A model generated the notes under the pieces. It saw only the letters and a program-made list of their open reading frames with translations. It made no database searches and was not told where the DNA came from. This document shows, piece by piece, positions 32,067 through 32,898 of a DNA stretch of 64,000 nucleotides. Numbering within the stretch: position 1 is the stretch's first letter; each line of letters begins with the position of its first letter. The translations under genes and the position numbers were made by a program. The stretch lies in assembly GCA_964626905.1 (NCBI GenBank), contig CAZVHA010000008.1:7872-71871 (forward strand), given 5' to 3'. The stretch comes from an uncultured bacterium (lineage in GTDB: Bacteria > Chlamydiota > Chlamydiia > Chlamydiales > SM23-39).

Positions 32067-32898
32067 AGGGCTTTTGGGCTCAGCTCTATTAAGCAAATGT
32101 AAAGCGGCTTTACATTTGGATGTTGTCGCCACTGGGAAGGAGGTCGATGTTGCGGACTTGAGGGCACTTCGGGCATTTGCAAAAGGGCATAGAGCGATTA
32201 CCCATATAGTGAACTGCTCTGCATTTTCCGAGGTGGATAAGGCGCAAAGCCAACCTGAAGAGGCTTTTCGCACCAATGCCATTGGCCCTGAAAATCTCGC
32301 CCTTCTCGCAAAGGAAATGGGGGCCCATCTCATTCACATTTCGACCGATTACGTCTTTTCGGGTCCTCGAAAAATCCCTTTTACTGAAACCGATCTCCCG
32401 ATGCCGTGCAATGTGTATGGAAAGACGAAACTCGAAGGGGAAAAAAGGGCCCTTGCGCTGGGTGCATGCGTGATCCGGACGTCGTGGCTTTTTGGCGTGG
32501 GGGGCAAGAATTTTGTCCCCAAAACGATGGAGATGCTCCGGAGCCAAGAAGAAGTGCGGCTGACCGATGATCAGTGGAGTAAATTTACTTACGCCCCTGA
32601 TCTGAGTGAGGCCATTTTGCAAATGCTCGATCAGAGGGGGCTTTTTCAATTTGCAAACGAGGGGGTTGTCAGCAGGTATGAATTTGGGGTGGCCCTTTGG
32701 GAAGAGGCTCTCGCGATGGGTTACAAAATCGCTGCAAAAAAAGTGGTTCCAGTGCCGGGGAGCACTTTTGCAGCTGCCTGCGAGCGCCCTGTCTACTCGG
32801 CGCTCGATACTGGAAAAATTGAAAAAATTGTCCCTGTGCGTCCTTGGCGCGCGGCGTTAAAGGATTTTTTATGCGAACAACTGCTCATCTACTCGTAA
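32044..32898 (+). CDS. rfbD: dTDP-4-dehydrorhamnose reductase, carrying palindrome copy 2 in-frame near the N-terminus
   Basis: ITGSRGLLGS, STDYVFSG and NVYGKTKLEGE (YxxxK). Start taken at ATG 32044 (MLWITG), overlapping the end of rfbC. Confidence 0.88.
   Translation: MLWITGSRGLLGSALLSKCKAALHLDVVATGKEVDVADLRALRAFAKGHRAITHIVNCSAFSEVDKAQSQPEEAFRTNAIGPENLALLAKEMGAHLIHISTDYVFSGPRKIPFTETDLPMPCNVYGKTKLEGEKRALALGACVIRTSWLFGVGGKNFVPKTMEMLRSQEEVRLTDDQWSKFTYAPDLSEAILQMLDQRGLFQFANEGVVSRYEFGVALWEEALAMGYKIAAKKVVPVPGSTFAAACERPVYSALDTGKIEKIVPVRPWRAALKDFLCEQLLIYS
32095..32117. repeat. 23-bp palindrome, copy 2, inside rfbD
   Basis: Exact AAATGTAAAGCGGCTTTACATTT. Codons AAA TGT AAA GCG GCT TTA CAT TTG give KCKAALHL in the rfbD frame. 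Confidence 0.95.

Follow-up and report, generated by a model that had tools for sequence, protein, structure and literature searches.

A 64,000-nt stretch from an uncultured member of the Chlamydiota (GenBank assembly GCA_964626905.1, contig CAZVHA010000008.1; hereafter the window, meaning the whole stretch, in whose numbering coordinates are given) carries four copies of the 23-nt palindrome AAATGTAAAGCGGCTTTACATTT, three of them inside rmlD, sufD, and pyrC. The palindrome belongs to a repeat family that is best read as previously undescribed and as residing in a clade of uncultured environmental Chlamydiota. It is an intragenic and extragenic palindromic repeat of an unusual kind: Copies are letter-perfect over deep divergence, genic copies replace native sequence, and the core is common to phages. 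We tentatively favor the view that this is an ancient family of elements resembling the repetitive extragenic palindromic (REP) elements and the Rickettsia palindromic elements (RPE), now conserved as a putative sequence-specific recognition site.

All four window copies announced in a preliminary description of this DNA were located (Table 1), three as exact forward-strand matches and the fourth as the reverse complement, with C as its center base on the + strand. None of 100 dinucleotide-preserving shuffles of the window held a match, even at 3 mismatches; the window itself has no copy at 1–6 mismatches, neither arm alone, and no half-site AAATGTAAAGC outside the palindrome. In a flank logo, which also shows a purine at +2, 69% of 97 copies carry C at −1 with G at +1; in effect the unit is therefore a 25-bp palindrome, arranged 12-1-12 as C-[23]-G. 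Translations and gene identities also hold for the three in-frame copies: The peptide lies at the end of the first Rossmann helix of RmlD (PF04321, encoded downstream of rmlC), in SufD (encoded inside sufBCDS), and in a loop ahead of the conserved HSxIRN of the dihydroorotase PyrC, whose gene stands between pyrI and a dihydroorotate-dehydrogenase-family gene (PF01180). The phase arithmetic already given was correct as well, the NVK(x)LYI phase being open and the third phase holding ATG-TAA. Copy 1 is probably leader rather than coding, because it ends immediately before the start of an ORF whose translation has a typical N terminus (MRRRLFKW...); that ORF has no Pfam match.

Table 1. Palindrome copies in the window and the insertion adjoining the fourth
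Feature	Position	Exact 23-mer	Strand	Host gene	Context
Copy 1	14..36	14-36	not assigned		exact match; ends 2 nt before an unannotated 798-aa ORF (ATG at 39)
Copy 2	32094..32118	32095-32117	+	rmlD, 32044-32898	in frame, KCKAALHL; flanking C/G
Copy 3	41682..41705	41682-41704	+	sufD, 41283-42404	in frame, KCKAALHL after conserved PP/PS
Copy 4	61918..61942	61919-61941	-	pyrC, 61261-62508 (-)	in frame, KCKAALHL
39-nt in-frame insertion (KYKEAASQQTPHG, 13 aa)	61942..61980		-	pyrC	adjoins copy 4

A search of other genomes for the pattern, a check of the kind proposed in the preliminary description, recovered the wider family. One genome per GTDB species was scanned for the exact 23-mer with the center base free, and the ~8 kb around each copy was taken as a locus (labels beginning with L). 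The scan returned 90 stretches with 94 copies, or 98 copies with the window's four, from about 20 Chlamydiota metagenome-assembled genomes (MAGs) of unrelated projects, some mislabeled as Verrucomicrobiota. In the same species scan no cultured chlamydia and no other phylum carried the exact 23-mer, apart from a 2.8-kb contig later assigned to phage. The center base is G in 35 copies, C in 30, A in 19, and T in 14. Density runs from a single copy on a 1.9-Mb contig up to eight on a 115-kb contig, and copy number varies ~20-fold among genomes, at spacings of about 1 per 10 kb to 1 per Mb. In the literature searched, neither the sequence string nor topical terms led to an earlier description of the palindrome, and the Estrella genome paper makes no mention of such repeats.

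Perfect identity among copies arouses suspicion of an assembly, adapter, or chimera artifact, a possibility we regard as negligible. The 23-mer occurs in frame and at orthologous positions in MAGs and contigs that stem from numerous unrelated projects and were built with different assemblers (SPAdes, MEGAHIT, long-read), and assemblies from NCBI, ENA, and Logan contain exact matches to the window's proteins, on a 76-kb MAG contig; it is this recurrence in separate assemblies, together with the unrelated-project MAGs, that excludes an artifact.

Part of the evidence for the favored reading is constraint at the nucleotide level, measured at the SufD site. Across 11 SufD orthologues of ~60–70% protein identity (four genome and seven metagenome loci), the element codons AAA, TGT, AAA, GCT, TTA (six-fold Leu), and CAT are each monomorphic in 11/11, while the center codon, GCN, appears in three forms and the codons of conserved flanking residues are polymorphic at 49/51. 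Mismatches are confined to the outer three nucleotides of each arm, and the inner 17 nt, TGTAAAGCnGCTTTACA, are invariant in 11/11. The contrast between frozen element codons and variable center and flanks places the constraint on nucleotides, not on the peptide; on this codon evidence, selection for the nucleic acid, DNA or RNA, keeps the copies letter-perfect, and KCKAALHL is a passenger. Covariation is absent from the 17–19 nt core, both arms keeping their sequence beyond pairing, which argues for base-specific recognition over pairing alone. An earlier suggestion that this is a strongly constrained binding or recombination site stands as regards constraint, with synonymous positions frozen between these species and the center alone free; the binding role it attached is putative.

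Sites can nonetheless be lost. The SufD site of SSF52 has decayed to AAATGCGAAGCTGTTTTGCATCT (5 mismatches), and many SufD, RmlD, and PyrC homologues have degraded peptides, such as KCEASIHL and KCRAEKV. Copies are therefore distributed bimodally, perfect or well decayed, rather than in a graded series: Over 726 kb of loci, 98 are exact, vs. 3, 3, 2, and 4 at 1, 2, 3, and 4 mismatches. Such decay would suit a neutral or selfish relic, that is, functionless old insertions not yet decayed or homogenized by gene conversion. We find this very improbable. Flanking synonymous sites are saturated while the six element codons stay invariant in 11 species, the bimodality speaks against it, and ordinary homologous gene conversion needs tracts longer than 23 bp.

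Grouping copies by tblastx of their flanks placed about half of them at orthologous positions, with flanks unalignable or 60–75% identical. The window shares its SufD site with L027, L048, L079, and L091–L103, its PyrC site with L037, and its RmlD site with L089, which carries an added 60-nt unit (see below). A PolA site, in the linker between the 5′-nuclease and 3′–5′ exonuclease domains, is common to four species, as is a site in the rpoD 3′ untranslated region, where one species has two copies in tandem. The site with the widest retention, in ~10 species (L008, L013, L022, L050, L052, L055, L060, L074, L082, and L086), lies upstream of a thrS-parA(AAA_31/CbiA)-UPF0137(pGP6-D-like)-lyase operon, in the ~80–150-bp gap to a divergent ~860-aa gene of no family. 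By these comparisons the three genic window sites go back to the root of a large clade and are not recent insertions, and any recent spread that the preliminary description might be taken to imply is not borne out. As a separate observation, two copies stand 38 nt apart after rpoD in L058:3403-3463.

By ORF calls made with crude heuristics, 59/98 copies are intergenic and 39/98 lie inside ORFs. The reading phase is KCK in 27 of the latter and NVK in 12; a bias toward KCKAALHL was rejected, since the ratio shrinks to ~18:11 once orthologous sites are merged and is not significant. At 17 further copies the gene ends at the third-phase TAA, so the palindrome itself supplies the stop codon. About 40 copies (~40%) fall within 25 nt of a stop codon, some form the N terminus of signal peptides (MKCKAALHL...), and others lie in linkers. 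These locations suggest a placement matching what tolerance predicts, at gene ends, N termini, linkers, and loops. The claim that the element always reads KCKAALHL holds for the three genic window copies and fails for the family, with its two open phases and 17 stop donors; a preference for genes was likewise not found, 60% of copies being intergenic and so many close to stops. From the idea of a palindromic element that colonizes coding sequence in frame, what survives is the dispersal, the unequal copy numbers, the permissive sites, and an in-frame 84-nt form, and what drops out is the universal phase and the genic preference.

Alignments of ~120 homologues per gene, and alignments to solved structures, bear out for RmlD, SufD, and PyrC the suggestion that native sequence was replaced and not purely added to. 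In the structure alignments KCKAALHL stands opposite native residues with no 8-residue gap. By the homologue alignments the net length change is −2 residues in SufD, +2 in PyrC, and 0 to +6 in RmlD. SufD outgroups have 10 residues, PPKC[RQ]IETPIEV or KTQIAPPLQI, where the clade has 8 (PPKCKAALHL), and their DNA resembles both ends of the element (AAATGY on the left, CCTTTACAAATT on the right). RmlD outgroups carry short native sequence such as K-RAA-LATGR; within the clade KCKAALH comes in three length classes, running into TGR (278 aa), into LETGH (281 aa), or through L into DVVATGK (284 aa, the window). In PyrC the native KYAGETDPxxHS of outgroups becomes (E/K)CKAALHLGAxxHS in the clade, and in a second register, QCKAALH joined to SVIRN, the element supplies the conserved His. 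Replacement may have come about by insertion and later trimming or by short-patch conversion through microhomology.

The palindrome also occurs in a longer, nested form. A ~60-nt unit follows 15 copies and was not found without a 23-mer on its left; it comprises 4–8 nt, a hairpin such as GGGGCCCCCGAAAAACGCCTCGTTTTTTGGGG, and then TTGTGTATTGCnGCTTTACATTT (L002, L004, L007, L010 at 17-100, L012, L014, L029, where it is in tandem, L033, L049, L055, L069, L070, L076, and L089). The resulting 84-nt composite folds as a single long hairpin (−35 kcal/mol as RNA, z-score −6.3), the two original arms forming the outer stem and the apical stem showing compensatory changes at 3 pairs. One orthologous site keeps the long form in three species (L002, L012, and L014). 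Composite and solo alleles differ by exactly 20 residues (RmlD 298 vs. 278 aa, PyrC 421 vs. 401 aa), so the two forms interconvert cleanly at the palindrome; in these alleles the unit lies on either side of it or is doubled.

Window copies are all solo. The pyrC insertion listed in Table 1 starts with AAATATAAAGAGGCGGC, a degenerate left arm, and the window PyrC has 415 aa vs. 402 aa in the 95%-identical P0021 and P0022, which lack exactly these 39 nt. Insertions also adjoin copies in L017 and L085, and as far as such sequence comparisons go, the palindrome is a local indel hotspot. Other sequences seen after 23-mers, at L017:3005-3075, L085:735-800, and in the L020, L022, and L033 flanks, are the hairpin GGGGCTTCCCCGCC and runs of heptamers (CTCTGTG, TGCGTTC, CGGACTC).

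Outside the chromosomes, the 19-mer core ATGTAAAGCnGCTTTACAT recurs in at least 120 IMG/VR contigs, many of them 34–41 kb long with GC ~39%. Counts for these contigs rest on the matches listed (L173–L292), among which several contigs have more than one copy. The contigs form one coherent family of uncultivated tailed phages, with a P22-type portal in at least 48 loci and genes for capsid, major tail protein, RecT/exonuclease, and large terminase. The portal is at most ~25% identical to those of isolated phages (Ralstonia and Burkholderia phages), so the host is not inferable from it. Core copies are exact in 130 cases, vs. 11, 8, and 3 at 1, 2, and 3 mismatches; 85% are intergenic, and a Shine–Dalgarno sequence (SD) with a start codon follows 8–16 nt downstream in 27%, vs. 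3% at random positions. A position that recurs is the gap separating a 147-aa gene from a major-tail-like gene. Phage flanks have no chlamydial AA/TT extension and no 60-nt unit. Chlamydial and phage loci have almost no proteins in common, and no ParA or UPF0137 homologue was found in the 978 kb of phage loci sampled. The motif has no match among the isolated phages of INPHARED and no copy in the plasmids of PLSDB, chlamydial or other. The 2.8-kb exception in the species scan (L056, DATKLQ010000235.1, labeled Ignavibacteriaceae) is a fragment of this phage family and was probably mis-binned.

That the environmental chlamydiae and this phage family have in common the recognition site of one putative factor, or alternatively a protein-free hairpin micro-element, is in our estimate a doubtful proposition. 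A double-HTH_17 (excisionase-type) small protein is encoded in one chlamydial and 3–4 phage loci (L006:5303-5761; L205:833-1261; L255:2238-2663), and in L255 the palindrome occupies an operator position between the upstream stop and the SD of its gene; as a partner of the palindrome it was set aside, the association being too sparse to call. A phage sigma factor gene followed by the palindrome, at first sight a link to the chlamydial rpoD 3′ site, was put down to coincidence, its region 4 being equally close to E. coli and chlamydial RpoD. The phage loci also include a large terminase gene with an intein splicing domain (L240:9913-11721), a pair of copies 25 nt apart (L204:6709-6752), and, in L056, an HNH/endonuclease-VII-like gene (621-1223) directly 3′ of the palindrome.

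An RNA-level account would have the element act as a transcript hairpin, read by an RNA-binding protein or nuclease and setting mRNA ends, stability, or translation. The 23-mer can form a 10–11-bp hairpin (−6.5 to −9.1 kcal/mol), identical from either transcribed strand, and the chlamydial copies just after stop codons, the intergenic, SD-proximal phage copies, and the compensatory changes of the long form, typical of structured RNA, all fit such a role. Inner-pair variants in phages place a G·T wobble on the sense strand in 5/6 informative cases, which is not significant. The account appears improbable to us, since the 17–19 nt core lacks covariation, no RNA role suggests itself for mid-gene copies (sufD, rmlD, pyrC, and polA), and the hairpin is unlike an intrinsic terminator: It has 2 G-C pairs and 3 T, was not called by a terminator scan, and was rejected as such. 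Rfam recognized nothing but tRNAs in the composite-bearing loci and the window.

A second alternative is a purely host cis site for chromosome organization or partition, of the parS, matS, Noc/SlmA, or KorB type, gained in situ with no mobile history; candidate dimeric binders would be ParB and the UPF0137/pGP6-D-like protein whose gene accompanies that of ParA. It would explain a perfect dyad with a free center base and frozen synonymous sites, and genic copies that replace rather than insert. The thrS-parA-UPF0137 operon is the only recurrent neighbor of copies, and one of its ~10 species is a MAG whose single exact copy, on the 1.9-Mb contig, is there; in L055 and L053 copies also follow the lyase gene, so the operon is bracketed. 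Copies seem to bunch near parA, lying on REEB169 contig 1 at 5, 11 (parA), 17, 27, 27, 37, 82, and 96 kb and likewise on the long contigs of SSF52 and JAJACH, a bunching that is apparent and not statistically established. L053 further holds three copies in an array (4367-4657; spacings 144 and 124 nt).

Likeness to parS, matS, the Noc-binding site (NBS), and the KorB operator (OB) extends to an exact dyad, an odd center in some (KorB, matS), tens of copies tolerated in genes, conserved orthologous positions, and possible clustering near a parA operon. The central AGCnGCT presumably resembles the KorB operator, which we take to be TTTAGCSGCTAAA. The palindrome differs from these sites in its bias to intergenic positions and gene ends, its nested 60-nt form, and its core in phages. 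Canonical parS (16-bp TGTTNCACGTGAAACA), to which the palindrome is unrelated in sequence, was tried and rejected: It is absent at ≤1 mismatch from the window and the loci scanned for it (~1.4 Mb), and the window matches it only at 3, chance level. UPF0137 has no PDB or NCBIfam relative.

We judge a chromosome site unlikely, if by no means far-fetched. Sixty percent of copies are intergenic and hug stops, unlike the mostly genic parS, matS, and NBS; copy number spreads ~20-fold; and it is implausible that point mutation within enzymes produced 22 specified bases, with almost no intermediates seen. The core recurs in phages whose sampled loci lack ParA and UPF0137, and in SSF52 the suf region and the exact copies nearest to it are 150 kb apart. 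Across the 8-kb loci, GC skew is too noisy to locate origin or terminus, which limits the clustering evidence.

Among known repeats the family comes closest to RPE and to REPs, though it departs from defining features of both. RPE were reportedly described by Ogata et al. in 2000. Like them, the palindrome is a hairpin-forming repeat in an obligate intracellular lineage, encodes no transposase, and has in-frame copies at permissive sites of housekeeping genes, kept at orthologous positions (here RmlD, SufD, PyrC, and PolA). RPE measure ~100–150 bp and add 30–50 residues, whereas the palindrome measures 23–25 bp (84 nt in the long form) and replaces native sequence, only the 60-nt unit inserting cleanly (+20 residues); RPE copies diverge from each other, whereas palindrome copies are letter-perfect, frozen at synonymous sites, and mostly intergenic. 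RPE are also mentioned in a review of MITEs, the miniature inverted-repeat transposable elements (PMC10969869). A MITE was rejected here, as the unit is two abutted 11-nt arms, with no duplication and no parent insertion sequence seen near copies.

The other comparison system is that of REP elements, their bacterial interspersed mosaic elements (BIMEs), and the REP-associated tyrosine transposases (RAYTs) (PMC3733652). The palindrome resembles REPs as a dispersed repeat of the 20–40-bp class, concentrated 3′ of stops and between convergent genes, with composite forms and possible binding by host proteins. It has no GTAG/CGTC head, its flanks showing the C/G and purine noted above; copies number tens vs. 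hundreds; 40% lie in ORFs vs. extragenic REPs; and it is common to many species and phages, whereas REPs are species-specific.

Like the cyanobacterial HIP1 and the DNA uptake sequences (DUS) and uptake signal sequences (USS), it is a short exact motif found in genes, of a kind thought to arise by replacement or substitution, and common to related species; those motifs are 8–12 nt at ~1 per kb, whereas the palindrome has 22 specified bases and no lone half-sites in the window. A DNA uptake sequence was rejected on these grounds, half-sites never standing outside the palindrome there and density being one copy per 16 kb at most. Start-associated sequences and stoperators of mycobacteriophages, restricted to a single phage cluster, are asymmetric 13-mers. 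The phage-family core recalls them in lying in tiny gaps just 5′ of the SD or start of many genes; it differs as a symmetric 19-bp palindrome that is also found in bacterial chromosomes. Known chlamydial transcription-factor operators were rejected as well, since none resembles the palindrome (Euo, HrcA/CIRCE, and PhoB/ChxR): Those reported are TTAAAAACAAATTTT for Euo, TAGCA-N15-TGCTAA for CIRCE, and a 21-mer for PhoB (PMC4989314), and for C. trachomatis Euo there is no defined motif (PMC10653925).

Several points count against an REP/RPE-like origin with later conservation as a recognition site. No RAYT, transposase, or other cognate gene emerged from ORF clustering within ~8 kb of any of the 98 copies, and no target-site duplication appears in the 98 flank pairs. 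The native stretches replaced already resemble the element in part (PPKC...PLQI in SufD, RAA-LATGR in RmlD, ALHS in PyrC), and because the element replaces partly similar sequence, the genic sites are not what simple insertion predicts. The constraint data do not separate DNA-level from RNA-level selection, and gene calls in the loci, being heuristic, soften the placement figures.

With these points weighed, we still lean toward an REP/RPE-like history. A miniature hairpin-forming repeat would have spread in the clade's ancestor in the manner of those elements. Copies would have survived where tolerated, whether just after stops (with some providing the stop themselves), in leaders, or, in either open phase, within permissive stretches of protein. 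Since selection on the nucleic acid holds them letter-perfect, they may act as recognition sites for a putative sequence-specific factor, which could be a DNA-binding protein working as a symmetric dimer or one that reads the hairpin formed by single-stranded DNA or RNA. The palindrome is also where the structured 60-nt hairpin unit docks or nests.

Other repeats and features were met along the way. A ~150-nt intergenic repeat occurs twice in the window in inverted orientation (5834-5987 and 29544-29681, ~90% identical), with a hairpin CCACCGAG...CTCGGTGG followed by conserved TAAAATATTTACTYAAGYCTGTTGG..CTTCGGCGATTTATGCAACAA and no Rfam match. An inverted repeat at 3400-3572 (72-nt arms, 82% complementary, 29-nt spacer) lies directly 3′ of an epimerase/dehydratase gene (2432-3403), and a ~740-bp tandem duplication at 17897-19353 (79–94% identical) contains the paralogous ORFs 18007-18603 and 18750-19310. 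In SSF52 (L171; JAIBBX010000002.1, 281-302 kb), genes for Ku, a LigD-type ligase, and a primase-polymerase (nonhomologous end joining) stand a few kb upstream of the suf operon.

For the Chlamydiota, a phylum with almost no mapped regulatory or chromosome-organizing sites and poor genetics, the family would provide a compact 25-bp cis-element, and the motif serves as a marker for one clade of MAGs from environmental chlamydiae. Its solo and nested forms offer a natural system for palindrome gain, expansion, and in-frame tolerance. If short-patch replacement at part-similar sites is indeed how the element overwrites coding sequence, this would be a mode undescribed for bacterial repeats. The core common to chlamydiae and phages could serve as a handle on phage host assignment: Were the shared recognition site real, the Chlamydiota would have their first tailed phages here, if the hosts are chlamydiae, or the phages would at minimum trade DNA with the phylum. 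With unusual clarity, the family shows a stretch of coding sequence within essential enzymes (RmlD, SufD, PyrC, and PolA) evolving under nucleotide selection, and the protein merely accommodates it.

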